Under the pieces are notes generated by a model. That model saw only the letters and a program-made list of their open reading frames with translations. It was not told the origin of the DNA and searched no databases. From Botryllus schlosseri (taxonomy: Eukaryota): a stretch of 64,000 bases of DNA. This document shows positions 32,301 to 59,830 of the stretch, in pieces; positions within the stretch are counted from its first letter, which is position 1, and every line of letters begins with the position of its first letter. The position numbers and the translations under genes were made by a program. The DNA is taken from the NCBI GenBank assembly GCA_051294905.1, contig CM119371.1:13766001-13830000 (forward strand). The letters run 5' to 3'.

Positions 32301-35300
32301 TAGGCTCATTAGATGTAACTTTTGAATTGCTACAATCTGGTAGCAGAGTTGTAACTGTAGGCCCTCGGAAACATAGAGAAATCTTGGTGGAATTGAACTT
32401 TTCATAAATTTTCATACCCCCCAAAATGGCTAAATCTGCCAATATCTCCTAAACTACAATAGCCAGGAATACGCCGATAGGCTCATTCGATGTAACTTTT
32501 GAATTGCTACAATCTGGAAGCAGAGTTGTAACTGTAGGCCCTCGGGAACATAGAGAAATCTTGGTGGAATTGAACTTTTCATAAATTTTCATACCCCCCA
32601 AAATGGCTAAATCTGCCAATATCTCCTAAACTACAATAGCCAGGAATACGCCGATAGGCTTATTCGATGTAACTTTTGAATTGCTACAATCTGGTAGCAG
32701 AGTTGTAACTGTATGCCCTCGGGAACATAGAGAAATCTTGGTGGAATTGAACTTTTCATAAATTTTCATACCCCCCAAAATGGCTAAATCTGCCAATATC
32801 TCCTAAACTACAATAGCCAAGAATACGCCGATAGGCTCATTCGATGTAACTTTTGAATTGCTACCATCTGGTAGCAGAGTTGTAACTGTAGGCCCTCGGG
32901 AACATAGAGAAATCTTGGTGGAATTGAACTTTTCATAAATTTTCATACCCCCCAAAATGGCTAAATCTGCCAATATCTCCTAAACTACAATAGCCAGGAA
33001 TACGCCGATAGCCTCATTCGATGTAACTTTTGAATTGCTACAATCTGGTAGCAGAGTTGTAACTGTAGGCCCTCGGGAACATAGAGAAATCTTGGTGGAA
33101 TTGAACTTTTCATAAATTTTCATATCCCCCAAAATGGCTAAATCTGCCAATATCACCTAAACTACAATAGCCAGGAATACGCCGATAGGCTCATTCGATG
33201 TAACTTTTGAATTGCTACAATCTGGTAGCAGAGCTGTAACTGTAGAACCTCGGGAACATAGAGAAATCTTGGTGGAATTGAACTTTTCATAAATTTTCAT
33301 ACCCCCCAAAATGGCTAAATCTGCCAATATCTCCTAAACTACAATAGCCAGGAATACGCCGATAGGCTCATTCGATGTAACTTTTGAATTGCTACAATCT
33401 GGTAGCAGAGTTGTAACTGTAGGCCCTCGGGAACATAGAGAAATCTTGGTGGAATTGAACTTTTCATAAATTTTCATACCACCCAAAATGGCTAAATCTG
33501 CCAATATCTCCTAAACTACAATAGCCAGGAATACGCCGATAGGCTCATTCGATGTAACTTTTGAATTGCTACAATCTGGTAGCAGAGTTGTAACTGTAGG
33601 CCCTCGGAAACATAGAGAAATCTTGGTGGAATTGAACTTTTCATAAATTTTCATACTCCCCAAAATGGCTAAATCTGCCAATATCTCCTAAACTACAATA
33701 GCCAGGAATACGCCGATAGGCTCATTCGATGTAACTTTTGAATTGCTACAATCTGGTAGCAGAGTTGTAACTATAGGCCCTCGGGAACATAGAGAAATCT
33801 TGGTGGAATTGAACTTTTCATAAATTTTCATACCCCCCAAAATGGCTAAATCTGCCAATATCTCCTAAACTACAATAGCCAGGAATACGCCGATAGGCTC
33901 ATTCGATGTAACTTTTGAATTGCTACAATCTGGTAGCAGAGTTGTAACTGTATGCCCTCGGGAACATAGAGAAATCTTGGTGGAATTGAACTTTTCATAA
34001 ATTTTCATACCCCCCAAAATGGCTAAATCTGCCAATATCTCCTAAACTACAATAGCCAGGAATACGCCGATAGGCTCATTCGATGTAACTTTTGAATTGC
34101 TACAATCTGGCAGCAGAGTTGTAACTGTAGGCCCTCGGGAACATAGAGAAATCTTGGTGGAATTGAACTTTTCATAAATTTTCATACCCCCCAAAATGGC
34201 TAAATCTGCCAATATCTCCTAAACTACAATAGCCAGGAATACGCCGATAGGCTCATTCGATGTAACTTTTGAATTGCTACAATCTGGTAGCAGAGTTGTA
34301 ACTGTAGGCCCTCGGGAACACAGAGAAATCTTGGTGGAATTGAACTTTTCATAAATTTTCATACCCCCAAAATGGCTAAATCTGCCAATATCTCCTAAAC
34401 TACAATAGCCAGGAATACGCCGATAGGCTCATTCGATGTAACTTTTGAATTGCTACAATCTGGTAGCAGAGCTGTAACTGTAGGCCCTCGGGAACATAGA
34501 GAAATCTTGGTGGAATTGAACTTTTCATAAATTTTCATACCCCCCAAAATGGCTAAATCTGCCAATATCTCCTAAACTACAATAGCCAGGAATACGCCGA
34601 TAGGCTCATTCGATGTAACTTTTGAATTGCTACAATCTGGTAGCAGAGTTGTAACTGTAGGCCCTCTGGAACATAGAGAAATCTTGGTGGAATTGAACTT
34701 TTCATAAATTTTCATACCCCCCAAAATGGCTAAATCTGCCAATATCTCCTAAACTACAATAGCCAAGAATACGCCTATAGGCTCATTCGATGTAACTTTT
34801 GAATTGCTACAATCTGGTAGCAGAGTTGTAACTGTAGGCCCTCGGGAACATAGAGAAATCTTGGTGGAATTGAACTTTTCATAAATTTTCATACCCCCCA
34901 AAATGGCTAAATCTGCCAATATCTCCTAAACTACAATAGCCAGGAATACGCCGATAGGCTCATTCGATGTAACTTTCGAATTGCTACAATCTGGTAGAAG
35001 AGTTGTAACTGTAGGCCCTCGGAAACATAGAGAAATCTTGGTGGAATTGAACTTTTCATAAATTTTCATACCCCCCAAAATGGCTAAATCTGCCAATATC
35101 TCCTAAACTACAATAGCCAGGAATACGCCGATAGGCTCATTCGATGTAACTTTTGAATTGCTACAATCTGGAAGCAGAGTTGTAACTGTAGGCCCTCGGG
35201 AACATAGAGAAATCATGGTGGAATTGAACTTTTCATAAATTTTCATACCCCCCAAAATGGCTAAATCTGCCAATATCTCCTAAACTACAATAGCCAGGAA

Positions 35301-38300
35301 TACGCCGATAAGCTCATTCGATGTAACTTTTGAATTGCTACAATCTGGTAGCAGAGTTGTAACTGTAGGCCCTCGGGAACATAGAGAAATCTTGGTGGAA
35401 TTGAACTTTTCATAAATTTTCATACCCCCCAAAATGGCTAAATCTGCCAATATCTCCTAAACTACAATAGCCAGGAATACGCCGATAGGCTCATTCGATG
35501 TAACTTTTGAATTGCTACAATCTGGTAGCAGAGTTGTAACTGTAGGCCCTCGGGAACATAGAGAAATCTTGGTGGAATTGAACTTTTCATAAATTTTCAT
35601 ACCCCCCAAAATGGCTAAATCTGCCAATATCTCCTAAACTACAATAGCCAGGAATACGCCGATAGGCTCATTCGATGTAACTTTTGAATTGCTACAATCT
35701 GGTAGCAGAGCTGTAACTGTAGGCCCTCGGGAACATAGAGAAATCTTGGTGGAATTGAACTTTTCATAAATTTTCATACCCCCCAAAATGGCTAAATCTG
35801 CCAATATCTCCTAAACTACAATAGCCAGGAATACGCCGATAGGCTCATTCGATGTTACTTTTGAATTGCTACAATCTGGTAGCAGAGTTGTAACTGTAGG
35901 CCCTCGGGAACATAGAGAAATCTTGGTGGAATTGAACTTTTCATAAATTTTCATACCCCCCAAAATGGCTAAATCTGCCAATATCTCCTAAACTACAATA
36001 GCCAAGAATACGCCTATAGGCTCATTCGATGTAACTTTTGAATTGCTACAATCTGGTAGCAGAGTTGTAACTGTAGGCCCTCGGGAACATAGAGAAATCT
36101 TGGTGGAATTGAACTTTTCATAAATTTTCATACCCCCCAAAATGGCTAAATCTGCCAATATCTCCTAAACTACAATAGCCAGGAATACGCCGATAGGCTC
36201 ATTCGATGTAACTTTTGAATTGCTACAATCTGGTAGCAGAGTTGTAACTGTAGGCCCTCGGAAACATAGAGAAATCTTGGTGGAATTGAACTTTTCATAA
36301 ATTTTCATACCCCCCAAAATGGCTAAATCTGCCAATATCTCCTAAACTACAATAGCCAGGAATACGCCGATAGGCTCATTCGATGTAACTTTTGAATTGC
36401 TACAATCTGGAAGCAGAGTTGTAACTGTAGGCCCTCGGGAACATAGAGAAATCTTGGTGGAATTGAACTTTTCATAAATTTTCATACCCCCCAAAATGGC
36501 TAAATCTGCCAATATCTCCTAAACTACAATAGCCAAGAATACGCCGATAGGCTCATTCGATGTAACTTTTGAATTGCTACAATCTGGTAGCAGAGTTGTA
36601 ACTGTAGGCCCTCGGGAACATAGAGAAATCTTGGTGGAATTGAACTTTTCATAAATTTTCATACCCCCCAAAATGGCTAAATCTGCCAATATCTCCTAAA
36701 CTACAATAGCCAGGAATACGCCGATAGGCTCATTCGATGTAACTTTTGAATTGCTACAATCTGGTAGCAGAGTTGTAACTGTAGGCCCTCGGGAACATAG
36801 AGAAATCTTGGTGGAATTGAACTTTTCATAAATTTTCATATCCCCCAAAATGGCTAAATCTGCCAATATCTCCTAAACTACAATAGCCAGGAATACGCCG
36901 ATAGGCTCATTCGATGTAACTTTTGAATTGCTACAATCTGGTAGCAGAGCTGTAACTGTAGAACCTCGGGAACATAGAGAAATCTTTGTGGAATTGAACT
37001 TTTCATAAATTTTCATACCCCCCAAAATGGCTAAATCTGCCAATATCTCCTAAACTACAATAGCCAGGAATACGCCGATAGGCTCATTCGATGTAACTTT
37101 TGAATTGCTACAATCTGGTAGCAGAGTTGTAACTGTAGGCCCTCGGGAACATAGAGAAATCTTGGTGGAATTGAACTTTTCATAAATTTTCATACCCCCC
37201 AAAATGGCTAAATCTGCCAATATCTCCTAAACTACAATAGCCAGGAATACGCCGATAGGCTCATTCGATGTAACTTTTGAATTGCTACAATCTGGTAGCA
37301 GAGTTGTAACTGTAGGCCCTCGGGAACATAGAGAAATCTTGGTGGAATTGAACTTTTCATAAATTTTCATATCCCCCATAATGGCTAAATCTGCCAATAT
37401 CTCCTAAACTACAATAGCCAGGAATACGCCGATAGGCTCATTCGATGTAACTTTTGAATTGCTACAATCTGGTAGCAGAGCTGTAACTGTAGAACCTCGG
37501 GAACATAGAGAAATCTTTGTGGAATTGAACTTTTCATAAATTTTCATACCCCCCAAAATGGCTAAATCTGCCAATATCTCCTAAACTACAATAGCCAGGA
37601 ATACGCCGATAGGCTCATTCGATGTAACTTTTGAATTGCTACAATCTGGTAGCAGAGTTGTAACTGTAGGCCCTCGGGAACATAGAGAAATCTTGGTGGA
37701 ATTGAACTTTTCATAAATTTTCATACCCCCCAAAATGGCTAAATCTGCCAATATCTTCTAAACTACAATAGCCAGGATTACGCCGATAGGCTCATTCGAT
37801 GTAACTTTTGAATTGCTACAATCTGGTAGCAGAGTTGTAACTGTAGGCCCTCGGAAACATAGAGAAATCTTGGTGGAATTGAACTTTTCATAAATTTTCA
37901 TACCCCCCAAAATGGCTAAATCTGCCAATATCTCCTAAACTACAATAGCCAGGAATACGCCGATAGGCTCATTCGATGTAACTTTTGAATTGCTACAATC
38001 TGGTAGCAGAGTTGTAACTGTAGGCCCTCGGGAACATAGAGAAATCTTGGTGGAATTGAACTTTTCATAAATTTTCATACCCCCCAAAATGGCTAAATCT
38101 GCCAATATCTCCTAAACTACAATAGCCAGGAATACGCCGATAGGCTCATTCGATGTAACTTTTGAATTGCTACAATCTGGTAGCAGAGTTGTAACTGTAG
38201 GCCCTCGGGAACATAGAGAAATCTTGGTGGAATTGAACTTTTCATAAATTTTCATATCCCCCAAAATGGCTAAATCTGCCAATATCTCCTAAACTACAAT

Positions 38301-41300
38301 AGCCAGGAATACGCCGATAGGCTCATTCGATGTAACTTTTGAATTGCTACAATCTGGTAGCAGAGCTGTAACTGTAGAACCTCGGGAACATAGAGAAATC
38401 TTTGTGGAATTGAACTTTTCATAAATTTTCATACCCCCCAAAATGGCTAAATCTGCCAATATCTCCTAAACTACAATAGTCGGGAATACGCCGATAGGCT
38501 CATTCGATGTAACTTTTGAATTGCTACAATCTGGTAGCAGAGTTGTAACTGTAGGCCCTCGGGAACATAGAGAAATCTTGGTGGAATTGAACTTTTCATA
38601 AATTTTCATACCCCCCAAAATGGCTAAATCTGCAAATATCTCCTAAACTACAATAGCCAGGAATACGCCGATTGGCTCATTCGATGTAACTTTTGAATTG
38701 CTACAATCTGGTAGCAGAGTTGTAACTGTAGGCCCTCGGAAACATAGAGAAATCTTGGTGGAATTGAACTTTTCATAAATTTTCATACTCCCCCAAAATG
38801 GCTAAATCTGCCAATATCTCCTAAACTACAATAGCCAGGAATACGCCGATAGGCTCATTCGATGTAACTTTTGAATTGCTACAATCTGGTAGCAGAGTTG
38901 TAACTGTAGGCCCTCGGGAACATAGAGAAATCTTGGTGGAATTGAACTTTTCATAAATTTTCATACCCCCCAAAATGGCTAAATCTGCCAATATCTACTA
39001 AACTACAATAGCCAGGAATACGCCGATAGGCTCATTCGATGTAACTTTTGAATTGCTAAAATCTGGTAGCAGAGTTGTAACTGTAGGCCCTCGGAAACAT
39101 AGAGAAATCTTGGTGGAATTGAACTTTTCATAAATTTTCATACCCCCCAAAATGGCTAAATCTGCCAATATCTCCTAAACTACAATAGCCAGGAATACGC
39201 CGATAGGCTCATTCGATGTAACTTTTAAATTGCTACAATCTGGTAGCAGAGTTGTAACTGTAGGCCCTCGGGAACATAGAGAAATCTTGGTGGAATTGAA
39301 CTTTTCATAAATTTTCATACCCCCCAAAATGGCTAAATCTGCCAATATCTCCTAAACTACAATAGCCAGGAATACGCCGATAGGCTCATTCGATGGAACT
39401 TTTGAATTGCTACAATCTGGTAGCAGAGTTGTAACTGTAGGCCCTCGGGAACATAGAGAAATCTTGGTGGAATTGAACTTTTCATAAATTTTCATACCCC
39501 CCAAAATGGCTAAATCTGCCAATATCTCCTAAACTACAATAGCCAGGAATACGCCGATAGGCTCATTCGATGTAACTTTTGAATTGCTACAATCTGGTAG
39601 CAGAGTTGTAACTGTAGGCCCTCGGGAACATAGAGAAATCTTGGTGGAATTGAACTTTTCATAAATTTTCATACCCCCCAAAATGGCTAAATCTGCCAAT
39701 ATCTCCTAAACTACAATAGCCAGGAATACGCCGATAGGCTCATTCGATGTAACTTTTGAATTGCTACAATCTGGTAGCAGAGTTGTAACTGTAGGCCCTC
39801 GGGAACATAGAGAAATCTTGGTGGAATTGAACTTTTCATAAATTTTCATACCCCCCAAAATGGCTAAATCTGCCAATATCTCCTAAACTACAATAGCCAG
39901 GAATACGCCGATAGGCTCATTCGATGTAACTTTTGAATTGCTACAATCTGGTAGAAGAGTTGTAACTGTAGGCCCTCGGGAACATAGAGAATTCTTGGTG
40001 GAATTGAACTTTTCATAAATTTTCATACCCCCCAAAATGGCTAAATCTGCCAATATCTCCTAAACTACAATAGCCAGGAATACGCCGATAGGCTCATTCG
40101 ATGTAACTTTTGAATTGCTACAATCTGGTAGCAGAGCTGTAACTGTAGGCCTTCGGGAACATAGGGAAATCTTGGTGGAATTGAACTTTTCATAAATTTT
40201 CATACCCCCCAAAATGGCTAAATCTGCCAATATCTCCTAAACTACAATAGCCAGGAATACGCCGATAGGCTCATTCGATGTAACTTTTGAATTGCTACAA
40301 TCTGGTAGCAGAGTTGTAACTGTAGGCCCTCGGGAACATAGAGAAATCTTGGTGGAATTGAACTTTTCAAAAATTTTCATACCTCCCAAAATGGCTAAAT
40401 CTGCCAATATCTCCTAAACTACAATAGCCAGGAATACGCCGATAGGCTCATTCGATGTAACTTTTGAATTGCTACAATCTGGTAGCAGAGTTGTAACTGT
40501 AGGCCCTCGGGAACATAGAGAAATCTTGGTGGAATTGAACTTTTCAAAAATTTTCATACCTCCCAAAATGGCTAAATCTGCCAATATCTCCTAAACTACA
40601 ATAGCCAGGAATACGCCGATAGGCTCATTCGATGTAACTTTTGAATTGCTACAATCTGGTAGCAGAGTTGTAACTGTAGGCCCTCGGGAACATAGAGAAA
40701 TCTTGGTGGAATTGAACTTTTCAAAAATTTTCATACCTCCCAAAATGGCTAAATCTGCCAATATCTCCTAAACTACAATAGCCAGGAATACGCCGATAGG
40801 CTCATTCGATGTAACTTTTGAATTGCTACAATCTGGTAGCAGAGTTGTAACTGTAGGCCCTCGGGAACATAGAGAAATCTTGGTGGAATTGAACTTTTCA
40901 TAAATTTTCATACCCCCCAAAATGGCTAAATCTGCCAATATCTCCTAAACTACAATAGCCAGGAATACGCCGATAGGCTCATTCGATGTAACTTTTGAAT
41001 TGCTACAATCTGGTAGCAGAGTTGTAACTGTAGGCCCTCGGAAACATAGAGAAATCTTGGTGGAATTGAACTTTTCATAAATTTTCATACCCCCCAAAAT
41101 GGCTAAATCTGCCAATATCTCCTAAACTACAATAGCCAGGAATACGCCGATAGGCTCATTCGATGTAACTTTTGAATTGCTACAATCTGGAAGCAGATTT
41201 GTAACTGTAGGCCCTCGGGAACATAGAGAAATCTTGGTGGAATTGAACTTTTCATAAATTTTCATACCCCCCAAAATGGCTAAATCTGCCAATATCTCCT

Positions 41301-44300
41301 AAACTACAATAGCCAGGAATACGCCGATAGGCTCATTCGATGTAACTTTTGAATTGCTACAATCTGGTAGCAGAGTTGTAACTGTATGCCCTCGGGAACA
41401 TAGAGAAATCTTGGTGGAATTGAACTTTTCATAAATTTTCATACCCCCCAAAATGGCTAAATCTGCCAATATCTCCTAAACTACAATAGCCAGGAATACG
41501 CCGATAGGCTCATTCGATGTAACTTTTGAATTGCTACAATCTGGTAGCAGAGTTGTAACTGTATGCCCTCGGGAACATAGAGAAATCTTGGTGGAATTGA
41601 ACTTTTTATAAATTTTCATACCCCCCAAAATGGCTAAATCTGCCAATATCTCCTAAACTACAATAGCCAGGAATACGCCGATAGGCTCATTCGATGTAAC
41701 TTTTGAATTGCTACAATCTGGTAGCAGAGTTGTAACTGTAAGCCCTCGGGAACATAGAGAAATCTTGGTGGAATTGAACTTTTCATAAATTTTCATACCC
41801 CCCAAAATGGCTAAATCTGCCAATATCTCCTAAACTACAATAGCCAGGAATACGCCGATAGGCTCATTCGATGTAACTTTTGAATTGCTACAATCTGGTA
41901 GCAGAGTTGTAACTGTATGCCCTCGGGAACATAGAGAAATCTTGGTGGAATTGAACTTTTCATAAATTTTCATACCCCCCAAAATGGCTAAATCTGCCAA
42001 TATCTCCTAAACTACAATAGCCAGGAAAACGCCGATAGGCTCATTCGATGTAACTTTTAAATTGCTACAATCTGGTAGCAGAGTTGTAACTGTAGGCCCT
42101 CGGGAACATAGAGAAATCTTGGTGGAATTGAACTTTTCATAAATTTTCATACCCCCCAAAATGGCTAAATCTGCCAATATCTCCTAAACTACAATAGCCA
42201 GGAATACGCCGATAGGCTCATTCGATGTAACTTTTGAATTGCTACAATCTGGTAGCAGAGTTGTAACTGTAGGCCCTCGGGAACATAGAGAAATCTTGGT
42301 GGAATTGAACTTTTCATAAATTTTCATATCCCCCAAAATGGCTAAATCTGCCAATATCTCCTAAACTACAATAGCCAGGAATACGCCGATAGGCTCATTC
42401 GATGTAACTTTTGAATTGCTACAATCTGGTAGCAGAGCTGTAACTGTAGAACCTCGGGAACATAGAGAAATCTTTGTGGAATTGAACTTTTCATAAATTT
42501 TCATACCCCCCAAAATGGCTAAATCTGCCAATATCTCCTAAACTACAATAGCCAGGAATACGCCGATAGGCTGATTCGATGTAACTTTTGAATTGCTACA
42601 ATCTGGTAGCAGAGTTGTAACTGTAGGCCCTCGGGAACATAGAGAAATCTTGGTGGAATTGAACTTTTCATAAATTTTCATACCCCCCAAAATGGCTAAA
42701 TCTGCCAATATCTTCTAAACTACAATAGCCAGGATTACGCCGATAGGCTCATTCGATGTAACTTTTGAATTGCTACAATCTGGTAGCAGAGTTGTAACTG
42801 TAGGCCCTCGGAAACATAGAGAAATCTTGGTGGAATTGAACTTTTCATAAATTTTCATACCCCCCAAAATGGCTAAATCTGCCAATATCTCCTAAACTAC
42901 AATAGCCAGGAATACGCCGATAGGCTCATTCGATGTAACTTTTGAATTGCTACAATCTGGTAGCAGAGTTGTAACTGTAGGCCCTCGGGAACATAGAGAA
43001 ATCTTGGTGGAATTGAACTTTTCATAAATTTTCATACCCCCCAAAATGGCTAAATCTGCCAATATCTCCTATACTACAATAGCCAGGAATACGCCGATAG
43101 GCTCATTCGATGTAACTTTTGAATTGCTACAATCTGGTAGCAGAGTTGTAACTGTAGGCCCTCGGGAACATAGAGAAATCTTGGTGGAATTGAACTTTTC
43201 ATAAATTTTCATATCCCCCAAAATGGCTAAATCTGCCAATATCTCCTAAACTACAATAGCCAGGAATACGCCGATAGGCTCATTCGATGTAACTTTTGAA
43301 TTGCTACAATCTGGTAGCAGAGCTGTAACTGTAGAACCTCGGGAACATAGAGAAATCTTTGTGGAATTGAACTTTTCATAAATTTTCATACCCCCCAAAA
43401 TGGCTAAATCTGCCAATATCTCCTAAACTACAATAGCCGGGAATACGCCGATAGGCTCATTCGATGTAACTTTTGAATTGCTACAATCTGGTAGCAGAGT
43501 TGTAACTGTAGGCCCTCGGGAACATAGAGAAATCTTGGTGGAATTGAACTTTTCATAAATTTTCATACCCCCCAAAATGGCTAAATCTGCCAATATCTCC
43601 TAAACTACAATAGCCAGGAATACGCCGATAGGCTCATTCGATGTAACTTTTGAATTGCTACAATCTGGTAGCAGAGTTGTAACTGTAGGCCCTCGGAAAC
43701 ATAGAGAAATCTTGGTGGAATTGAACTTTTCATAAATTTTCATACTCCCCCAAAATGGCTAAATCTGCCAATATCTCCTAAACTACAATAGCCAGGAATA
43801 CGCCGATAGGCTCATTCGATGTAACTTTTGAATTGCTACAATCTGGTAGCAGAGTTGTTACTGTAGGCCCTCGGGAACATAGAGAAATCTTGGTGGAATT
43901 GAACTTTTCATAAATTTTCATACCCCCCAAAATGGCTAAATCTGCCAATATCTACTAAACTACAATAGCCAGGAATACGCCGATAGGCTCATTCGATGTA
44001 ACTTTTGAATTGCTAAAATCTGGTAGCAGAGTTGTAACTGTAGGCCCTCGGAAACATAGAGAAATCTTGGTGGAATTGAACTTTTCATAAATTTTCATAC
44101 CCCCCAAAATGGCTAAATCTGCCAATATCTCCTAAACTACAATAGCCAGGAATACGCCGATAGGCTCATTCGATGTAACTTTTAAATTGCTACAATCTGG
44201 TAGCAGAGTTGTAACTGTAGGCCCTCGGGAACATAGAGAAATCTTGGTGGAATTGAACTTTTCATAAATTTTCATACCCCCCAAAATGGCTAAATCTGCC

Positions 44301-47300
44301 AATATCTCCTAAACTACAATAGCCAGGAATACGCCGATAGGCTCATTCGATGGAACTTTTGAATTGCTACAATCTGGTAGCAGAGTTGTAACTGTAGGCC
44401 CTCGGGAACATAGAGAAATCTTGGTGGAATTGAACTTTTCATAAATTTTCATACCCCCCAAAATGGCTAAATCTGCCAATATCTCCTAAACTACAATAGC
44501 CAGGAATACGCCGATAGGCTCATTCGATGTAACTTTTGAATTGCTACAATCTGGTAGCAGAGTTGTAACTGTAGGCCCTCGGGAACATAGAGAAATCTTG
44601 GTGGAATTGAACTTTTCATAAATTTTCATACCCCCCAAAATGGCTAAATCTGCCAATATCTCCTAAACTACAATAGCCAGGAATACGCCGATAGGCTCAT
44701 TCGATGTAACTTTTGAATTGCTACAATCTGGTAGCAGAGTTGTAACTGTAGGCCCTCGGGAACATAGAGAAATCTTGGTGGAATTGAACTTTTCATAAAT
44801 TTTCATACCCCCCAAAATGGCTAAATCTGCCAATATCTCCTAAACTACAATAGCCAGGAATACGCCGATAGGCTCATTCGATGTAACTTTTGAATTGCTA
44901 CAATCTGGTAGAAGAGTTGTAACTGTAGGCCCTCGGGAACATAGAGAATTCTTGGTGGAATTGAACTTTTCATAAATTTTCATACCCCCCAAAATGGCTA
45001 AATCTGCCAATATCTCCTAAACTACAATAGCCAGGAATACGCCGATAGGCTCATTCGATGTAACTTTTGAATTGCTACAATCTGGTAGCAGAGCTGTAAC
45101 TGTAGGCCTTCGGGAACATAGGGAAATCTTGGTGGAATTGAACTTTTCATAAATTTTCATACCCCCCAAAATGGCTAAATCTGCCAATATCTCCTAAACT
45201 ACAATAGCCAGGAATACGCCGATAGGCTCATTCGATGTAACTTTTGAATTGCTACAATCTGGTAGCAGAGTTGTAACTGTAGGCCCTCGGGAACATAGAG
45301 AAATCTTGGTGGAATTGAACTTTTCAAAAATTTTCATACCTCCCAAAATGGCTAAATCTGCCAATATCTCCTAAACTACAATAGCCAGGAATACGCCGAT
45401 AGGCTCATTCGATGTAACTTTTGAATTGCTACAATCTGGTAGCAGAGTTGTAACTGTAGGCCCTCGGGAACATAGAGAAATCTTGGTGGAATTGAACTTT
45501 TCAAAAATTTTCATACCTCCCAAAATGGCTAAATCTGCCAATATCTCCTAAACTACAATAGCCAGGAATACGCCGATAGGCTCATTCGATGTAACTTTTG
45601 AATTGCTACAATCTGGTAGCAGAGTTGTAACTGTAGGCCCTCGGGAACATAGAGAAATCTTGGTGGAATTGAACTTTTCAAAAATTTTCATACCTCCCAA
45701 AATGGCTAAATCTGCCAATATCTCCTAAACTACAATAGCCAGGAATACGCCGATAGGCTCATTCGATGTAACTTTTGAATTGCTACAATCTGGTAGCAGA
45801 GTTGTAACTGTAGGCCCTCGGGAACATAGAGAAATCTTGGTGGAATTGAACTTTTCATAAATTTTCATACCCCCCAAAATGGCTAAATCTGCCAATATCT
45901 CCTAAACTACAATAGCCAGGAATACGCCGATAGGCTCATTCGATGTAACTTTTGAATTGCTACAATCTGGTAGCAGAGTTGTAACTGTAGGCCCTCGGAA
46001 ACATAGAGAAATCTTGGTGGAATTGAACTTTTCATAAATTTTCATACCCCCCAAAATGGCTAAATCTGCCAATATCTCCTAAACTACAATAGCCAGGAAT
46101 ACGCCGATAGGCTCATTCGATGTAACTTTTGAATTGCTACAATCTGGAAGCAGATTTGTAACTGTAGGCCCTCGGGAACATAGAGAAATCTTGGTGGAAT
46201 TGAACTTTTCATAAATTTTCATACCCCCCAAAATGGCTAAATCTGCCAATATCTCCTAAACTACAATAGCCAGGAATACGCCGATAGGCTCATTCGATGT
46301 AACTTTTGAATTGCTACAATCTGGTAGCAGAGTTGTAACTGTATGCCCTCGGGAACATAGAGAAATCTTGGTGGAATTGAACTTTTCATAAATTTTCATA
46401 CCCCCCAAAATGGCTAAATCTGCCAATATCTCCTAAACTTCAATAGCCAGGAATACGCCGATAGGCTCATTCGATGTAACTTTTGAATTGCTACAATCTG
46501 GTAGCAGAGTTGTAACTGTATGCCCTCGGGAACATAGAGAAATCTTGGTGGAATTGAACTTTTCATAAATTTTCATACCCCCCAAAATGGCTAAATCTGC
46601 CAATATCTCCTAAACTACAATAGCCAGGAATACGCCGATAGGCTCATTCGATGTAACTTTTGAATTGCTACAATCTGGTAGCAGAGTTGTAACTGTAGGC
46701 CCTCGGGAACATAGAGAAATCTTGGTGGAATTGAACTTTTCATAAATTTTCATACCCCCCAAAATGGCTAAATCTGCCAATATCTCCTAAACTACAATAG
46801 CCAGGAATACGCCGATAGGCTCATTCGATGTAACTTTTGAATTGCTACAATCTGGTAGCAGAGTTGTAACTGTAGGCCCTCGGGAACATAGAGAAATCTT
46901 GGTGGAATTGAACTTTTCATAAATTTTCATACCCCCCAAAATGGCTAAATCTGCCAATATCTCCTAAACTACAATAGCCAGGAATACGCCGATAGGCTCA
47001 TTCGATGTAACTTTTGAATTGCTACAATCTGGTAGCAGAGTTGTAACTGTAGGCCCTCGGAAACATAGAGAAATCTTGGTGGAATTGAACTTTTCATAAA
47101 TTTTCATACCCCCCAAAATGGCTAAATCTGCCAATATCTCCTAAACTACAATAGCCAGGAATACGCCGATAGGCTCATTCGATGTAACTTTTGAATTGCT
47201 ACAATCTGGTAGCAGAGTTGTAACTGTAGGCCCTCGGGAACATAGAGAAATCTTGGTGGAATTGAACTTTTCATAAATTTCATACCCCCCAAAATGGCTA

Positions 47301-50300
47301 AATCTGACAAGATCTCCTAAACTACAATAGCCAGGAATACGCCGATAGGCTCATTCGATGCAACTTTTGAATTGCTACAATCTGGTAGCAGAGTTGTAAC
47401 TGTAGGCCCTCGGGAACATAGAGAAATCTTGGTGGAATTGAACTTTTCATAAATTTTCATACTCCCCAAAATGGCTAAATCTGCCAATATCTCCTAAACT
47501 ACAATAGCCAGGAATACGCCGATAGGCTCATTCGATGTAACTTTTGAATTGCTACAATCTGGTAGCAGAGTTGTAACTGTAGGCCCTCGGGAACATAGAG
47601 AAATCTTGGTGGAATTGAACTTTTCATAAATTTTCATACCCCCCAAAATGGCTAAATCTGCCAATATCTCCTAAACTACAATAGCCAGGAATACGCCGAT
47701 AGGCTCATTCGATGTAACTTTTGAATTGCTACAATCTGGTAGCAGAGTTGTAACTGTAGGCCCTCGGGAACATAGAGAAATCTTGGTGGAATTGAACTTT
47801 TCAAAAATTTTCATACCTCCCAAAATGGCTAAATCTGCCAATATCTCCTAAACTACAATAGCCAGGAATACGCCGATAGGCTCATTCGATGTAACTTTTG
47901 AATTGCTACAATCTGGTAGCAGAGTTGTAACTGTAGGCCCTCGGGAACATAGAGAAATCTTGGTGGAATTGAACTTTTCAAAAATTTTCATACCTCCCAA
48001 AATGGCTAAATCTGCCAATATCTCCTAAACTACAATAGCCAGGAATACGCCGATAGGCTCATTCGATGTAACTTTTGAATTGCTACAATCTGGTAGCAGA
48101 GTTGTAACTGTAGGCCCTCGGGAACATAGAGAAATCTTGGTGGAATTGAACTTTTCATAAATTTTCATACCCCCCAAAATGGCTAAATCTGCCAATATCT
48201 CCTAAACTACAATAGCCAGGAATACGCCGATAGGCTCATTCGATGTAACTTTTGAATTGCTACAATCTGGTAGCAGAGTTGTAACTGTAGGCCCTCGGAA
48301 ACATAGAGAAATCTTGGTGGAATTGAACTTTTCATAAATTTTCATACCCCCCAAAATGGCTAAATCTGCCAATATCTCCTAAACTACAATAGCCAGGAAT
48401 ACGCCGATAGGCTCATTCGATGTAACTTTTGAATTGCTACAATCTGGAAGCAGATTTGTAACTGTAGGCCCTCGGGAACATAGAGAAATCTTGGTGGAAT
48501 TGAACTTTTCATAAATTTTCATACCCCCCAAAATGGCTAAATCTGCCAATATCTCCTAAACTACAATAGCCAGGAATACGCCGATAGGCTCATTCGATGT
48601 AACTTTTGAATTGCTACAATCTGGTAGCAGAGTTGTAACTGTATGCCCTCGGGAACATAGAGAAATCTTGGTGGAATTGAACTTTTCATAAATTTTCATA
48701 CCCCCCAAAATGGCTAAATCTGCCAATATCTCCTAAACTTCAATAGCCAGGAATACGCCGATAGGCTCATTCGATGTAACTTTTGAATTGCTACAATCTG
48801 GTAGCAGAGTTGTAACTGTATGCCCTCGGGAACATAGAGAAATCTTGGTGGAATTGAACTTTTCATAAATTTTCATACCCCCCAAAATGGCTAAATCTGC
48901 CAATATCTCCTAAACTACAATAGCCAGGAATACGCCGATAGGCTCATTCGATGTAACTTTTGAATTGCTACAATCTGGTAGCAGAGTTGTAACTGTAGGC
49001 CCTCGGGAACATAGAGAAATCTTGGTGGAATTGAACTTTTCATAAATTTTCATACCCCCCAAAATGGCTAAATCTGCCAATATCTCCTAAACTACAATAG
49101 CCAGGAATACGCCGATAGGCTCATTCGATGTAACTTTTGAATTGCTACAATCTGGTAGCAGAGTTGTAACTGTAGGCCCTCGGGAACATAGAGAAATCTT
49201 GGTGGAATTGAACTTTTCATAAATTTTCATACCCCCCAAAATGGCTAAATCTGCCAATATCTCCTAAACTACAATAGCCAGGAATACGCCGATAGGCTCA
49301 TTCGATGTAACTTTTGAATTGCTACAATCTGGTAGCAGAGTTGTAACTGTAGGCCCTCGGAAACATAGAGAAATCTTGGTGGAATTGAACTTTTCATAAA
49401 TTTTCATACCCCCCAAAATGGCTAAATCTGCCAATATCTCCTAAACTACAATAGCCAGGAATACGCCGATAGGCTCATTCGATGTAACTTTTGAATTGCT
49501 ACAATCTGGTAGCAGAGTTGTAACTGTAGGCCCTCGGGAACATAGAGAAATCTTGGTGGAATTGAACTTTTCATAAATTTCATACCCCCCAAAATGGCTA
49601 AATCTGACAAGATCTCCTAAACTACAATAGCCAGGAATACGCCGATAGGCTCATTCGATGCAACTTTTGAATTGCTACAATCTGGTAGCAGAGTTGTAAC
49701 TGTAGGCCCTCGGGAACATAGAGAAATCTTGGTGGAATTGAACTTTTCATAAATTTTCATACTCCCCAAAATGGCTAAATCTGCCAATATCTCCTAAACT
49801 ACAATAGCCAGGAATACGCCGATAGGCTCATTCGATGTAACTTTTGAATTGCTACAATCTGGTAGCAGAGTTGTAACTGTAGGCCCTCGGGAACATAGAG
49901 AAATCTTGGTGGAATTGAACTTTTCATAAATTTTCATACCCCCCAAAATGGCTAAATCTGCCAATATCTCCTAAACTACAATAGCCAGGAATACGCCGAT
50001 AGGCTCATTCGATGTAACTTTTGAATTGCTACAATCTGGTAGCAGAGTTGTAACTGTAGGCCCTCGGGAACATAGAGAAATCTTGGTGGAATTGAACTTT
50101 TCATAAATTTTCATACCCCCCAAAATGGCTAAATCTGCCAATATCTCCTAAACTACAATAGCCAGGAATACGCCGATAGGCTCATTCGATGTAACTTTTG
50201 AATTGCTACAATCTGGTAGCAGAGTTGTAACTGTAGGCCCTCGGGAACATAGAGAAATCTTGGTGGAATTGAACTTTTCATAAATTTTCATACCCCCCAA

Positions 50301-53300
50301 AATGGCTAAATCTGCCAATATCTCCTAAACTACAATAGCCAGGAATACGCCGATAGGCTCATTCGATGTAACTTTTGAATTGCTACAATCTGGTAGCAGA
50401 GTTGTAACTGTAGGCCCTCGGGAACATAGAGAAATCTTGGTGGAATTGAACTTTTCATAAATTTTCATACCCCCCAAAATGGCTAAATCTGCCAATATCT
50501 CCTAAACTACAATAGCCAGGAATACGCCGATAGGCTCATTCGATGTAACTTTTGAATTGCTACAATCTGGTAGCAGAGTTGTAACTGTAGGCCCTCGGGA
50601 ACATAGAGAAATCTTGGTGGAATTGAACTTTTCATAAATTTTCATACCCCCCAAAATGGCTAAATCTGCCAATATCTCCTAAACTACAATAGCCAGGAAT
50701 ACGCCGATAGGCTCATTCGATGTAACTTTTGAATTGCTACAATCTGGTAGCGGAGTTGTAACTGTAGGCCGTCGGGAACATAGAGAAATCTTGGTGGAAT
50801 TGAACTTTTCATAAATTTTCATACCCCCCAAAATGGCTAAATCTGCCAATATCTTCTAAACTACAATAGCCAGGATTACGCCGATAGGCTCATTCGATGT
50901 AACTTTTGAATTGCTACAATCTGGTAGCAGAGTTGTAACTGTAGGCCCTCGGAAACATAGAGAAATCTTGGTGGAATTGAACTTTTCATAAATTTTCATA
51001 CCCCCCAAAATGGCTAAATCTGCCAATATCTCCTAAACTACAATAGCCAGGAATACGCCGATAGGCTCATTCGATGTAACTTTTGAATTGCTACAATCTG
51101 GAAGCAGATTTGTAACTGTAGGCCCTCGGGAACATAGAGAAATCTTGGTGGAATTGAACTTTTCATAAATTTTCATACCCCCCAAAATGGCTAAATCTGC
51201 CAATATCTCCTAAACTACAATAGCCAGGAATACGCCGATAGGCTCATTCGATGTAACTTTTGAATTGCTACAATCTGGTAGCAGAGTTGTAACTGTATGC
51301 CCTCGGGAACATAGAGAAATCTTGGTGGAATTGAACTTTTCATAAATTTTCATACCCCCCAAAATGGCTAAATCTGCCAATATCTCCTAAACTACAATAG
51401 CCAGGAATACGCCGATAGGCTCATTCGATGTAACTTTTGAATTGCTACAATCTGGTAGCAGAGTTGTAACTGTATGCCCTCGGGAACATAGAGAAATCTT
51501 GGTGGAATTGAACTTTTCATAAATTTTCATACCCCCCAAAATGGCTAAATCTGCCAATATCTCCTAAACTATAATAGCCAGGAATACGCCGATAGGCTCA
51601 TTCGATGTAACTTTTGAATTGCTACAATCTGGTAGCAGAGTTGTAACTGTAGGCCCTCGGGAACATAGAGAAATCTTGGTGGAATTGAACTCTTCATAAA
51701 TTTTTATACCCCCCAAAATGGCTAAATCTGCCAATATCTCCTAAACTACAATAGCCAGGAATACGCCGATAGGCTCATTCGATGTAACTTTTGAATTGCT
51801 ACAATCTGGTAGCAGAGTTGTAACTGTAGGCCCTCGGGAACATAGAGAAATCTTGGTGGAATTGAACTTGTCATAAATTTTCATATCCCCCAAAATGGCT
51901 AAATCTGCCAATATCTCCTAAACTACAATAGCCAGGAATACGCCGATAGGCTCATTCGATGTAACTTTTGAATTGCTACAATCTGGTAGCAGAGCTGCAA
52001 CTGTAGAACCTCGGGAACATAGAGAAATCTTGGTGGAATTGAACTTTTCATAAATTTTCATACCCCCCAAAATGGCTAAATCTGCCAATATCTCCTAAAC
52101 TACAATAGCCAGGAATACGCCGATAGGCTCATTCGATGTAACTTTTGAATTGCTACAATCTGGTAGCAGAGTTGTAACTGTAGGCCCTCGGGAACATAGA
52201 GAAATCTTGGTGGAATTGAACTTTTCATAAATTTTCATACCCCCCAAAATGGCTAAATCTGCCAATATCTCCTAAACTACAATAGCCAGGAATACGCCGA
52301 TAGGCTCATTCGATGTAACTTTTGAATTGCTACAATCTGGTAGCAGAGTTGTAACTGTAGGCCCTCGGAAACATAGAGAAATCTTGGTGGAATTGAACTT
52401 TTCATAAATTTTCATACCCCCCAAAATGGCTAAATCTGCCAATATCTCCTAAACTACAATAGCCAAGAATACGCCGATAGGCTCATTCGATGTAACTTTT
52501 GAATTGCTACAATCTGGTAGCAGAGTTGTAACTGTAGGCCCTCGGGAACATAGAGAAATCTTGGTGGAATTGAACTTTTCATAAATTTCATACCCCCCAA
52601 AATGGCTAAATCTGCCAATATCTCCTAAACTACAATAGCCAGGAATACGCCGATAGGCTCATTCGATGCAACTTTTGAATTTCTACAATCTGGTAGCAGA
52701 GTTGTAACTGTAGGCCCTCGGGAACATAGAGAAATCTTGGTGGAATTGAACTTTTCATAAATTTTCATACTCCCCAAAATGGCTAAATCTGCCAATATCT
52801 CCTAAACTACAATAGCCAGGAATACGCCGATAGGCTCATTCGATGTAACTTTTGAATTGCTACAATCTGGTAGCAGAGTTGTAACTGTAGGCCCTCGGGA
52901 ACATAGAGAAATCTTGGTGGAATTGAACTTTTCATAAATTTTCATACCCCCCAAAATGGCTAAATCTGCCAATATCTCCTAAACTACAATAGCCAGGAAT
53001 ACGCCGATAGGCTCATTCGATGTAACTTTTGAATTGCTACAATCTGGTAGCAGAGTTGTAACTGTAGGCCCTCGGGAACATAGAGAAATCTTGGTGGAAT
53101 TGAACTTTTCATAAATTTTCATACCCCCCAAAATGGCTAAATCTGCCAATATCTCCTAAACTACAATAGCCAGGAATACGCCGATAGGCTCATTCGATGT
53201 AACTTTTGAATTGCTACAATCTGGTAGCAGAGTTGTAACTGTAGGCCCTCGGGAACATAGAGAAATCTTGGTGGAATTGAACTTTTCATAAATTTTCATA

Positions 53301-56300
53301 CCCCCCAAAATGGCTAAATCTGCCAATATCTCCTAAACTACAATAGCCAGGAATACGCCGATAGGCTCATTCGATGTAACTTTTGAATTGCTACAATCTG
53401 GTAGCAGAGTTGTAACTGTAGGCCCTCGGGAACATAGAGAAATCTTGGTGGAATTGAACTTTTCATAAATTTTCATACCCCCCAAAATGGCTAAATCTGC
53501 CAATATCTCCTAAACTACAATAGCCAGGAATACGCCGATAGGCTCATTCGATGTAACTTTTGAATTGCTACAATCTGGTAGCAGAGTTGTAACTGTAGGC
53601 CCTCGGGAACATAGAGAAATCTTGGTGGAATTGAACTTTTCATAAATTTTCATAGCCCCCAAAATGGCTAAATCTGCCAATATCTCCTAAACTACAATAG
53701 CCAGGAATACGCCGATAGGCTCATTCGATGTAACTTTTGAATTGCTACAATCTGGTAGCAGAGTTGTAACTGTAGGCCCTCGGGAACATAGAGAAATCTT
53801 GGTGGAATTGAACTTTTCATAAATTTTCATACCCCCCAAAATGGCTAAATCTGCCAATATCTCCTAAACTACAATAGCCAGGAATACGCCGATAGGCTCA
53901 TTCGATGTAACTTTTGAATTGCTACAATCTGGTAGCAGAGTTGTAACTGTAGGCCCTCGGGAACATAGAGAAATCTTGGTGGAATTGAACTTTTCATAAA
54001 TTTTCATACCCCCCAAAATGGCTAAATCTGCCAATATCTCCTAAACTACAATAGCCAGGAATACGCCGATAGGCTCATTCGATGTAACTTTTGAATTGCT
54101 ACAATCTGGTAGCAGAGTTGTAACTGTAGGCCTTCGGGAACATAGAGAAATCTTGGTGGAATTGAACTTTTCATAAATTTTCATACCCCCCAAAATGACT
54201 AAATCTGCCAATATCTCCTAAACTACAATAGCCAGGAATACGCCGATAGGCTCATTCGATGTCACTTTTGAATTGCTACAATCTGGTAGCAGAGTTGTAA
54301 CTGTAGGCCCTCGGGAACATAGAGAAATCTTGGTGGAATTGAACTTTTCATAAATTTTCATACTCCCCAAAATGGCTAAATCTGCCAATATCTCCTAAAC
54401 TACAATAGCCAGGAATACGCCGATAGGCTCGTTCGATGTAACTTTTGAATTGCTACAATCTGGTAGCAGAGTTGTAACTGTAGGCCCTCGGGAACATAGA
54501 GAAATCTTGGTGGAATTGAACTTTTCATAAATTTTCATACCCCCCAAAATGGCTAAATCTGCCAATATCTCCTAAACTACAATAGCCAGGAATACGCCGA
54601 TAGGCTCATTCGATGTAACTTTTGAATTGCTACAATCTGGTAGCAGAGTTGTAACTGTAGGCCCTCGGAAACATAGAGAAATCTTGGTGGAATTGAACTT
54701 TTCATAAATTTTCATACCCCCCAAAATGGCTAAATCTGCCAATATCTCCTAAACTACAATAGCCAGGAATACGCCGATAGGCTCATTCGATGTAATTTTT
54801 GAATTGCTACAATCTGGTAGCAGAGTTGTAACTGTAGGCCCTCGGGAACATAGAGAAATCTTGGTGGAATTGAACTTTTCATAAATTTTCATACCCCCCA
54901 AAATTGCTAAATCTGCCAATATCTCCTAAACTACAATAGCCAGGAATACGCCGATAGGCTCATTCGATGTAACTTTTGAATTGCTACAATCTGGTAGCAG
55001 AGTTGTAACTGTAGGCCCTCGGGAACATAGAGAAATCTTGGTGGAATTGAACTTTTCTTAAATTTTCATACCCCCCAAAATGGCTAAATCTGCCAATATC
55101 TCCTAAACTACAATAGCCAGGAATACGCCGATAGGCTCATTCGATGTAACTTTTGAATTGCTACAATCTGGTAGCAGAGTTGTAACTGTAGGCCCTCGGG
55201 AACATAGAGAAATCTTGGTGGAATTGAACTTTTCATAAATTTTCATACCCCCCAAAATGGCTAAATCTGCCAATATCTCCCAAACTACAATAGCCAGGAA
55301 TACGCCGATAGGCTCATTCGATGTAACTTTTGAATTGCTACAATCTGGTAGCAGAGTTGTAACTGTAGGCCCTCGGGAACATAGAGAAATCTTGGTGGAA
55401 TTGAACTTTTCATAAATTTTCATACCCCCCAAAATGGCTAAATCTGCCAATATCTCCTAAACTACAATAGCCAGGAATACGCCGATAGGCTCATTCGATA
55501 TTACTTTTGAATTGCTACAATCTGGTAGCAGAGTTGTAACTGTAGGCCCTCGGGAACATAGAGAAATCTTGGTGGAATTGAACTTTTCATAAATTTTCAT
55601 ACCCCCCAAAATGGCTAAATCTGCCAATATCTCCTAAACTACAATAGCCAGGAATACGCCGATAGGCTCATTCGATGTAACTTTTGAATTGCTACAATCT
55701 GGTAGCAGAGTTGTAACTGTAGGCCCTCGGGAACATAGAGAAATCTTGGTGGAATTGAACTTTTCATAAATTTTCATACCCCCCAAAATGGCTAAATCTG
55801 CCAATATCTCCTAAACTACAATGGCCAGGAATACGCCGATAGGCTCATTCGATGTAATTTTTGAATTGCTACAATCTGGTAGCAGAGTTGTAACTGTAGG
55901 CCCTCGGGAACATAGAGAAATCTTGGTGGAATTGAACTTTTCATAAATTTTCATACCCCCCAAAATTGCTAAATCTGCCAATATCTCCTAAACTACAATA
56001 GCCAGGAATACGCCGATAGGCTCATTCGATGTAACTTTTGAATTGCTACAATCTGGTAGCAGAGTTGTAACTGTAGGCCCTCGGGAACATAGAGAAATCT
56101 TGGTGGAATTGAACTTTTCTTAAATTTTCATACCCCCCAAAATGGCTAAATCTGTCAATATCTCCTAAACTACAATAGCCAGGAATACGCCGATAGGCTC
56201 ATTCGATGTAACTTTTGAATTGCTACAATCTGGTAGCAGAGTTGTAACTGTAGGCCCTCGGGAACATAGAGAAATCTTGGTGGAATTGAACTTTTCATAA

Positions 56301-57914
56301 ATTTTCATACCCCCCAAAATGGCTAAATCTGCCAATATCTCCCAAACTACAATAGCCAGGAATACGCCGATAGGCTCATTCGATGTAACTTTTGAATTGC
56401 TACAATCTGGTAGCAGAGTTGTAACTGTAGGCCCTCGGGAACATAGAGAAATCTTGGTGGAATTGAACTTTTCATAAATTTTCATACCCCCCAAAATGGC
56501 TAAATCTGCCAATATCTCCTAAACTACAATAGCCAGGAATACGCCGATAGGCTCATTCGATATTACTTTTGAATTGCTACAATCTGGTAGCAGAGTTGTA
56601 ACTGTAGGCCCTCGGGAACATAGAGAAATCTTGGTGGAATTGAACTTTTCATAAATTTTCATACCCCCCAAAATGGCTAAATCTGCCAATATCTCCTAAA
56701 CTACAATAGCCAGGAATACGCCGATAGGCTCATTCGATGTAACTTTTGAATTGCTACAATCTGGTAGCAGAGTTGTAACTGTAGGCCCTCGGGAACATAG
56801 AGAAATCTTGGTGGAATTGAACTTTTCATAAATTTTCATACCCCCCAAAATGGCTAAATCTGCCAATATCTCCTAAACTACAATAGCCAGGAATACGCCG
56901 ACAGGCTCATTCGATGTAACTTTTGAATTGCTACAGTCTGGTAGCAAAGTTGTAACTGTAGGCCCTCGGGAACATAGAGAAATCTTGGTGGAATTGAACT
57001 TTTCATAAATTTTCATACCCCCCTAAATGGCTAAATCTGCCAATATCTCCTAAACTACGATAGCCAGGAATACGCCGATAGGCATATTCGATGTAACTTT
57101 TGAATTGCTACAATCTGGTAGCAGAGTTGTAACTGTAGGCCCTCGGGAACATAGAGAAATCTTGGTGGAATTGAACTTTTCATAAATTTTCATACCCCCC
57201 AAAATGGCTAAATCTGCCAATATCTCCTAAACTACAATAGCCATGAATACGCCGATAGGCTCATTCGATGTAACTTTTGAATTGCTACAATCTGGTAGCA
57301 GAGTTGTAACTGTAGGCCCTCGGGAACAAAGAGAAATCTTGGTGGAATTGAACTTTTCATAAATTTTCATACCCCCCAAAATGGCTAAATCTGCCAATAT
57401 CTCCTAAACTACAATAGCCAGGAATACGCCGATAGGCTCATTCGATGTAACTTTTGAATTGCTACAATCTGGTAGCAGAGTTGTAACTGTAGGCCCTCGG
57501 GAACATAGAGAAATCTTGGTGGAATTGAACTTTTCATAAATTTTCATACCCCCCAAAATGGCTAAATCTGCCAATATCTCCTAAACTACAATAGCCAGGA
57601 ATACGCCGATAGGCTCATTCGATGTAACTTTTGAATTGCTACAATCTGGTAGCAGAGTTGTAACTGTAGGCCCTCGGGTACATAGAGAAATCTTGGTGGA
57701 ATTGAACTTTTCATAAATTTTCATACGCCCCAAAATGGCTAAATCTGCCAATATCTCCTAAACTACAATAGCCAGGAATTGGCCGATAGGCTCATTCGAT
57801 GTAACTTTTGAATTGCTACAATCTGGTAGCAGAGTTGTAACTGTGGGTTCTCGGGAACATAGAGAAATCTTGGTGGAATTGAACTTTTCATAAATTTTCA
57901 TACCCCCCAAAATG
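26347..57914 (-). repeat. 177-bp tandem satellite array, right arm in reverse orientation (~178 monomers)
   Basis: Reverse complement of the same monomer (CGGGAACATAGAGAAATCTTGGTGG...) with period 177. Confidence 0.99.
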
Positions 57915-59136
57915 TCAAAGTATTCCAATATCTCTCTAAGTACAATAGCCAGGGAAAAGTTATTGCGTGCAATCGATGTAACTTTCAGAGTTAGACACTC
58001 TGATACCGGAATTGTAGTTCTAGGCCTTCGGGAACATAGAGAAATCTTGGTAAATTTCATACCCCCCAAAATGTCAAAGTATGCCAATATCTCTCTAAGT
58101 ACAATAGCCAGGGAAAAGTTATTGCGTGCAATCGATGTAACTTTCAGAGTTAGACACTCTGATACCGGAATTGTAGTTCTAGGCCTTCGGGAACATAGAG
58201 AAATCTTGGTAAATTTCATACCCCCCAAAATGTCAAAGTATGCCAATATCTCTCTAAGTACAATAGCCAGGGAAAAGTTATTGCGTGCAATCGATGTAAC
58301 TTTCAGAGTTAGACACTCTGATACCGGAATTGTAGTTCTAGGCCTTCGGGAACATAGAGAAATCTTGGTAAATTTCATACCCCCCAAAATGTCAAGGTAT
58401 GCCAATATCTCTCTAAGTACAATAGCCAGGGAAAAGTTATTGCGTGCAATCGATGTAATTTCAGAGTTAGACACTCTGATACCGGAATTGCAGTTCTAGG
58501 CCTTCGGGAACATAGAGAAATCTTGGTAAATTTCATACCCCCCAAAATGTCAAAGTATGCCAATATCTCTCTAAGTACAATAGCCAAGGAAAAGTTATTG
58601 CGTGCAATCGATGTAACTTTCAGAGTTAGACACTCTGATACCGGAATTGTAGTTCTAGGCCTTCGGGAACATAGAGAAATCTTGGTAAATTTCATACCCC
58701 CCAAAATGTCAAAGTATGCCAATATCTCTCTAAGTACAATAGCCAGGGAAAAGTTATTGCGTGCAATCGATGTAACTTTCAGAGTTGGACACTCTGATAC
58801 CGGAATTGTAGTTCTAGGCCTTCGGGAACATAGAGAAATCTTGGTAAATTTCATACCCCCCAAAATGTCAAAGTATTCCAATATCTCTCTAAGTACAATA
58901 ACCAGGGAAAAGTTATTGCGTGCAATCGATGTAACTTTCAGAGTTATACACTCTGATACCGGAATCGTAGTTCTAGGCCTTCGGGAACATAGAGAAATCT
59001 TGGTAAATTTCATACCCCCAAAAATGTCAAAGTATGCCAATATCTCTCTAAGTACAATAGCCAGGGAAAAGTTATTGCGTGCAATCGATGTAACTTTCAG
59101 AGTTAGACACTCTGATACCGGAATTGTAGTTCTAGG
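57915..59136 (-). repeat. 159-bp satellite variant, ~7.7 monomers, same orientation as the adjacent 177-bp arm
   Basis: ATGTCAAAG recurs at 57912, 58071 and onward (period 159). It is collinear with the 177-mer except that GGAATTGAACTTTTCATA is absent. Confidence 0.98.
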
Positions 59137-59137
59137 G

Positions 59138-59819
59138 CCTAGAACTACAATTCCGGTATCAGAGTGTCTAACTCTGAAAGTTACATCGATTGCACGCAAT
59201 AACTTTTCCCTGGCTTTTGTACTTAGAGAGATATTGGCATACTTTGACATTTTAGGGGGTATGAAATTTATCAAGATTTCTCTATGTTCCCGAAGGCCTA
59301 GAACTACAATTCCGGTATCAGAGTGTCTAACTCTGAAAGTTACATCGATTGCACGCAAGAACTTTTCCCTGGCTATTGTACTTAGAGAGATATTGGCATA
59401 CTTTGACATTTTGGGGGGTATGAAATTTACCAAGATTTCTCTATGTTCCCGAAGGCCTAGAACTACAATTCCGGTATCAGAGTGTCTAACTCTGAAAGTT
59501 ACATCGATTGCACGCAATAACTTTTCCCTGGCTATTGTAGTTAGAGAGATATTGGCATACTTTGACATTTTGGGGGGTATGAAATTTACCAAGATTTCTC
59601 TATGTTCCCGAAGGCCTAGAACTACAATTCCGGTATCAGAGTGTCTAACTCTGAAAGTTACATCGATCGCACGCAATAACTTTTCCCAGGCTATTGTACT
59701 TAGAGAGATATTGGCATACTTTGACATTTTGGGGGGTATGAAATTTACCAAGATTTCTCTATGTTCCCGAAGGCCTAGAACTACAATTCCGGTATCAGAG
59801 TGTCTAACTCTGAAAGTTA
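59138..59819 (+). repeat. 159-bp satellite variant, ~4.3 monomers, inverted (right arm of palindrome)
   Basis: Junction ...GTAGTTCTAGG-G-CCTAGAACTAC... centred on 59137; the array ends abruptly at ...CTGAAAGTTA. Confidence 0.98.
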
Positions 59820-59830
59820 TGATTTCAAAA

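Follow-up and report, generated by a model that had tools for sequence, protein, structure and literature searches.

A strand switch with a one-nucleotide centre in an assembled satellite array of Botryllus schlosseri

Changes of orientation inside satellite arrays have been described in several systems, of which the macro-dyads of Tribolium are the closest in layout to the locus considered here. In TfSat01/TfSat03 and TmSat1/TmSat2 one truncated monomer directly abuts another of reverse orientation (PMC12581902, PMC13081366), with no foreign DNA at the joint, arms of unequal length and two related satellites meeting at a sharp transition; truncated monomers joined directly and without inserted DNA are described for T. 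freemani (PMC12581902). These joints exist in thousands of conserved copies, were confirmed on raw HiFi reads and have loops of 9-27 nt, and in the available passages macro-dyads are documented so far exclusively in Tribolium (PMC13081366). Human centromeric satellites also switch orientation inside their arrays, HSat3B5 and beta satellite with over 200 breakpoints and the alpha array of chromosome 1 with a 1.7-Mb inversion, inversions being commoner in divergent flanks (10.1101/2021.07.12.452052). Among palindromes of other kinds, fold-back inverted duplications place an inverted copy beside its template at a short microhomology of 2-8 bp, with spacers of 766-70,466 bp and arms that are identical at birth (PMC3907307), and the human PATRRs are near-perfect, >90% AT palindromes of several hundred bp with little or no spacer, which can extrude cruciforms (PMC7999016).

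This work concerns a strand switch at position 59137 of a 64-kb stretch of DNA, referred to below as the window. Strand switches in satellites being already known, what is unusual here is likely only the very tight centre. The joint matches the Tribolium macro-dyads in anatomy, truncated and oppositely oriented monomers being joined directly without intervening DNA, with unequal arms and a second, related satellite at a sharp transition; membership of that class would need recurrence, and in contrast to the Tribolium joints there is here one joint, known from the assembly alone, with a 1-nt centre (3-nt minimal loop). Like the human switches it lies inside an array, whereas, the available passages giving no spacers for the human joints, it is distinguished from them by its place 682 bp from the array edge and at a self-complementary site. 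It resembles the fold-back duplications in that the inverted copy adjoins its template at short microhomology; however, the 1-nt spacer, the 1-bp overlap and the lack of any mirrored variant set it apart, and a loop of at least 3 nt with at least 2 bp of inverted microhomology, by which such duplications are recognized, was not found. The length of the arms and the near absence of a spacer recall the PATRRs, the likeness in cruciform extrusion being one of predicted fold, but the arms are 39% GC and built of tandem satellite units.

Layout of the satellite locus and its joint

The window consists mostly of one satellite locus, made of 177-bp arrays and a 159-bp block, with the following features.

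4935..26246, minus strand: 177-bp satellite array A, ~120 units
26247..26346, no strand: scaffold gap of 100 N at which the orientation of the 177-bp array changes; junction not sequenced
26347..57914, plus strand: 177-bp satellite array B, ~179 units, nearly indel-free
57896..57914, plus strand: 177-to-159 transition, in phase and hybrid, within a 19-bp block identical in both units
57896..59136, plus strand: whole plus-strand block of 159-bp units, 7.8 copies of the majority family type (start at 57891 according to TRF)
58455..59136, plus strand: left palindrome arm of 159-bp units, with 8 substitutions and one 1-bp deletion near 58459
59132..59142, no strand: head-to-head junction, centre G at 59137
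59136..59819, minus strand: reversed 159-bp array, 4.3 copies according to TRF
59138..59819, minus strand: right palindrome arm, 4.3 reversed 159-bp units with 7 substitutions

The two repeat units are related: their alignment shows 122 identities in 159 bases, apart from an 18-bp indel. Two orientation switches were detected in the window by a 21-mer strand scan, one at the gap (26247-26346) and one at 59137, which leaves a single sequenced strand switch in 55 kb of array. On the right, the reversed arm stops abruptly at unit position 111, and the DNA is unique from 59820 on. The possibility that the flanks are decayed satellite was rejected, their scores being no better than those of shuffles.

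Arrays A and B have the same consensus and different shared variants, with one recurrent variant in common among 17 and 23 in a comparison that covered 105 of the 112 A segments, 7 multi-unit ones being dropped. For these differences and the 100-N gap, the flip at 26.3 kb was rejected as a second giant palindrome or mirror copy; it reflects either the orientation chosen in scaffolding or a tail-to-tail inversion joint hidden in the gap. Both outer ends of the locus are on the minus strand and enclose a plus segment, a parity that one internal inversion would give, and the second joint of such an inversion would sit in the gap and require 159-bp units there. The reciprocal tail-to-tail joint expected from a simple inversion is absent from the sequenced window.

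Repeated variant patterns mark recent multi-unit duplications in both arrays, of ~16-unit blocks in array A (5300-11700) and of ~14, 28 and 13 units in array B (29000-53000). Several other inverted elements occur outside the arrays. Positions 3462-4067 hold a 606-bp palindromic MITE-like element, 90% self-complementary, that directly adjoins one copy of a 263-bp inverted pair (620-882 / 3200-3462, 95%); a ~300-bp foldback MITE-like element with an internal 42-bp tandem repeat is found at 60563-60858, its ends resembling sequence at 1476-1585 and 3628-3904; and a 29-bp perfect inverted pair, 61402-61430 and 63674-63702, lies ~2.3 kb apart and possibly represents DNA transposon ends. BLAST of both flanks found no shared foldback transposon termini beside the array ends; a partner end could lie in the gap.

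The ~1.36-kb palindrome of the preliminary description, with 682-bp arms and a 1-nt centre at 59137, was recovered by TRF together with an inverted-pair search, in which the longest ungapped pair measured 678 nt at 98% complementarity, its arms 1 nt apart. Aligned to each other, as had been proposed at the outset, the two arms differ in 14 mismatched columns besides the 1-bp deletion near 58459. The centre reads CTAGG-G-CCTAG and is flanked by a perfect stem of 78 bp. The left array breaks off at unit position 156 and the right one at 157; they overlap by 1 bp at 59136, so that the joint contains one G more than a clean symmetric crossover at AGGCCT, one of three 6-bp palindromes in the 159-bp unit. 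The reversal had been assigned to this motif; the site holds, whereas an intact AGGCCT centre does not, one extra G being present. Long arms arise of themselves whenever a homogeneous tandem array is inverted head-to-head, which leaves the tight centre as the one feature to be explained: of the 25,281 break pairs that are possible, 477 (1.9%) have an offset of at most 1 nt.

The central 81 nt are predicted to fold as a single strand into a 39-bp stem with a 3-nt loop (-44.5 kcal/mol), the GC content being 43% at the centre. Formation of a hairpin or cruciform at the joint is structurally possible according to this model, and such a capacity implies no function. As for coding, one frame of the 159-bp unit (53 codons) is free of stops on either strand, at 58523-59833 (plus) and 58375-59751 (minus), and the plus frame stays open across the joint with its extra G. 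Two stop-free frames were obtained in 22 of 3,000 shuffles; in the plus frame 5 of 7 common family alleles are synonymous, and 10 of 37 differences between the 177-bp and 159-bp units fall at third positions, which indicates no codon bias. No match to the 159-bp repeat was found in Rfam, none of its frames reached the curated cut-off of a Pfam family, no related protein was found for the unit frames, and a junction-spanning 70-aa peptide used as a probe for independent assemblies gave no candidate. A protein or RNA gene in the block is not supported by the Rfam, Pfam and codon-position evidence.

The repeat family and the authenticity of the joint

Contigs of sequencing runs were aligned to positions 59097-59305 (209 bp) for 4 of 21 runs, which come from two studies, three of them from one sample; runs with small word shares (X5-X13) were left out. 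The number of contigs on these 209 bp was 76,112, 5,878, 29,000 and 410 per run. The 159-bp repeat is a high-copy satellite family, arranged head-to-tail and homogeneous, with 98% matches between units. At five other polymorphic sites the majority allele of the family is present in all 12 159-bp units of the window, in keeping with a local origin of the block. Two of the changes in the arms correspond to alleles that are common in the family, and neither is mirrored: the base at 58947 matches an allele at 5-18% of the summed contig depth, a measure that is not an allele frequency, and at 59254 the consensus G reaches only 44-67% of that depth in three runs and 93% in the fourth. Position 59254 is a homopolymer edge and is recurrently mutated in the 177-bp array too (C58A, 5 times).

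Database and literature searches were also made for the repeat and its joint. The monomer motif had no match in prokaryote and viral collections. One match to the junction pattern in metagenome contigs, L001, was rejected, the similarity covering only 24-42 bp; at 465-508 this bacterial contig has a 44-bp palindrome just upstream of a long transposase-like ORF, a chance match. No description of the 159-bp/177-bp satellite was found in the literature searched, which mostly excluded subscription papers. PMC12448946 deals, in the passages available, only with large genic palindromes and putative centromeric monomers whose sequence is absent from those passages, and 'macro-dyad' occurs in PMC13427858 and PMC13277930 in the reference lists only.

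The joint itself is likely to be real, and this is held with considerable assurance. The contig is nearly free of indels and the right arm enters a unique flank, so the joint probably reflects the genome. The quality of the consensus can be judged by comparing the two arrays: indels in array A become more frequent towards the gap, from 0 to 3.3 per unit (in the same 105 segments), in contrast to 6 indels in 168 units of array B from 28 kb onward, and the consensus of the region is therefore good.

Unmirrored private substitutions had been put forward against a fold-back read chimera. They do exclude a single read copied from itself, the second half of which would mirror the first at one locus; they leave standing a misjoin of two loci that was subsequently polished. 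Under this explanation, which appears unlikely, a chimeric fold-back read linked 159-bp arrays from two places, and polishing each with the reads of its own locus erased the mirror signal. An extra G in a GG run is a typical read error. The contig of array A has the graded indel decay that is typical of noisy long-read consensus, and no independent contig among those listed crosses 59137. Fold-back reads make up ~0.55-0.6% of ONT genomic reads, whereas HiFi data are virtually free of them (PMC12870357). Against such an artefact, a self fold-back would mirror 1.2 kb of 159-bp units and then the 177-bp array, and the right arm instead reaches unique DNA after 682 bp; the centre falls on the unit's own palindrome and not at random phase; and the contig runs almost without indels for 30 kb through the region.

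Searches for independent copies of the joint in the four runs bear on both its authenticity and its recurrence. Among the rows listed, to which 197 between-letter, 159 loose-end and 4 indel rows do not belong, there was no G-less centre, and the strand-change joint was found in none of the three joint rows. None of the 32 pieces listed of 107,490 crosses 59137, a weak test: rare paths are dropped from contigs, and PCR may fail to retain hairpin joints (PMC5932611).

Origin of the joint

Relative to the unit consensus the left arm carries 8 substitutions and the right arm 7, and none of these 15 is mirrored or shared at any offset; the whole 159-bp block has 17 substitutions and 1 deletion in 1,925 bp (0.9%). 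The earlier statement that private substitutions are unmirrored was correct, with two of its positions off by one (58877 and 58947 are the true ones). One change recurs in two left units, and at 59020/59254 the mirrored position is changed in both arms, to different bases. As 0.86 same-site pairs are expected among the 17 changes and 2 were seen, such pairs are within chance, and the double change at 59020/59254 was rejected as a hairpin signature in favour of chance or a hot spot.

The best reading of these data, held at even confidence, is that the joint arose by break and rejoining between different monomers at the self-complementary AGGCCT and is probably a one-off rearrangement scar. After a break or a fork stalling inside the AGGCCT of the 159-bp satellite, the end would have been rejoined to another monomer of this satellite that lay in the opposite orientation, the register being set by annealing at the 6-bp palindrome or by two cuts one base apart in phase. 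The extra G may stem from end-joining, from a one-base slip in GG/CC, from later repair of the centre or from a base-calling error, and the long arms would follow automatically from the inversion of an array that is 99% homogeneous. Aligned to its own reverse complement, the unit has 11 registers with at least 6 bp of microhomology, 3 of which, including AGGCCT, are zero-spacer palindromes; the zero-spacer share is thus 3/11 among microhomology registers compared with 1.9% among random breaks. Annealing between strands is free of the limit that a hairpin centre imposes, which makes an inter-strand switch or end-joining at AGGCCT plausible. Inter-strand break and rejoining of different monomers explains both the tight centre and the unmirrored variants, the counts of 0/8 (left) and 0/7 (right) mirrored substitutions being those expected when different monomers are joined. 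The family-common, unmirrored alleles at 58947 and 59254 point weakly in the same direction (at least 2 of 17 changes falling on such alleles has a chance of ~0.025, computed post hoc). The overlap is 1 bp and not 6, so a microhomology step needs an extra one-base event.

The same variants fit equally well a copying of the block onto itself at its birth, which as a whole is regarded as possible and rather improbable. The right arm would have begun as an exact copy of the left, the differences arising later, either through a 1-nt 5' overhang that was sealed to a hairpin and replicated or through an inter-strand U-turn of the fork at GG/CC. A hairpin sealed over a 1-nt overhang would give exactly the one-base centre seen in the joint, palindromic duplications do arise from hairpin-capped ends (PMC7999016), and the variants are nearly star-like, with 17 substitutions in 1,925 bp and one repeated change, compatible with chance. 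However, with 0 of 15 variants mirrored, an arm duplicated by folding back must be early, the event falling within the first 29% or less of the mutation history of the block (95% bound); moreover, the family-common allele at 58947 is unmirrored at 59327, and a second break and join is needed 682 bp away. The preliminary description had called the inversion "not recent", a dating that requires one arm to be a copy of the other; in a joint between different monomers the variants say nothing about its age.

That description attributed the joint to fold-back priming or template switching at AGGCCT. In favour of a 3' end that folded on AGGCCT within one strand and primed a mirror arm is the coincidence of the centre with one of the unit's three 6-bp palindromes. 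The central 4-6 bases of a hairpin cannot pair, though, and a 3' end anywhere in unit positions 153-159 gives an unstable hairpin (+1.3 to +3.0 kcal/mol) or none, whereas position 135, ~20 nt away in the unit, offers -5.2 kcal/mol; fold-back priming at AGGCCT is disfavoured on these energies. Yeast fold-backs use 5-9-bp repeats with 3-12-nt spacers (PMC7999016), the human fold-back duplications in the available passages all have spacers of at least 766 bp (PMC3907307), and no variant is mirrored. Priming within one strand is therefore highly improbable, and template switching at the motif stays plausible if it took place between strands.

Lastly, the joint could belong to a propagated cassette of the Tribolium type, in which the 159-bp block, its inversion site and the 177 transition would recur at many loci and may play a structural role in heterochromatin; this is considered a slender prospect. 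The layout is like the major/minor arrangement of Tribolium, in which the points of inversion and of transition are fixed (PMC13081366). A loose end at 59266 in one contig of another study (run X14) is compatible with the 159/177 transition of the window; a pure 177-bp unit is only 82-86% alike there over 25-50 bases. The outer end of array A (4935) is unit position 171, directly before AGGCCC, the homologue of the AGGCCT inversion site; its distance from the phase of that site is 3 nt, with a chance of ~8% for one of two ends. Against a propagated cassette stand the single sequenced switch in 55 kb of array and the lack, among the rows listed, of a high-depth strand-change joint or a G-less centre. 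Also quite unlikely is the proposal that AGGCC(T/C) is a preferred cleavage or strand-switch point, at which spacer-less joints would recur as a macro-dyad cassette, with the 159-bp repeat as a minor block in 177-bp arrays.

Significance

As a one-off scar, the joint is a clean example of strand switching in a satellite array and puts to a test in nature whether the germ line of an animal retains a 1.4-kb palindrome that has no spacer and is not AT-rich. Recurrence of the joint would extend conserved satellite macro-dyads beyond Tribolium and would indicate a sequence-specific break site in the monomer. Were the AGGCC(T/C) cassette true, this would be the tightest such joint described, in a high-copy satellite family of a sea squirt, and a chordate parallel to the centromeric macro-dyads of Tribolium, stable despite a perfect stem of 78 bp.
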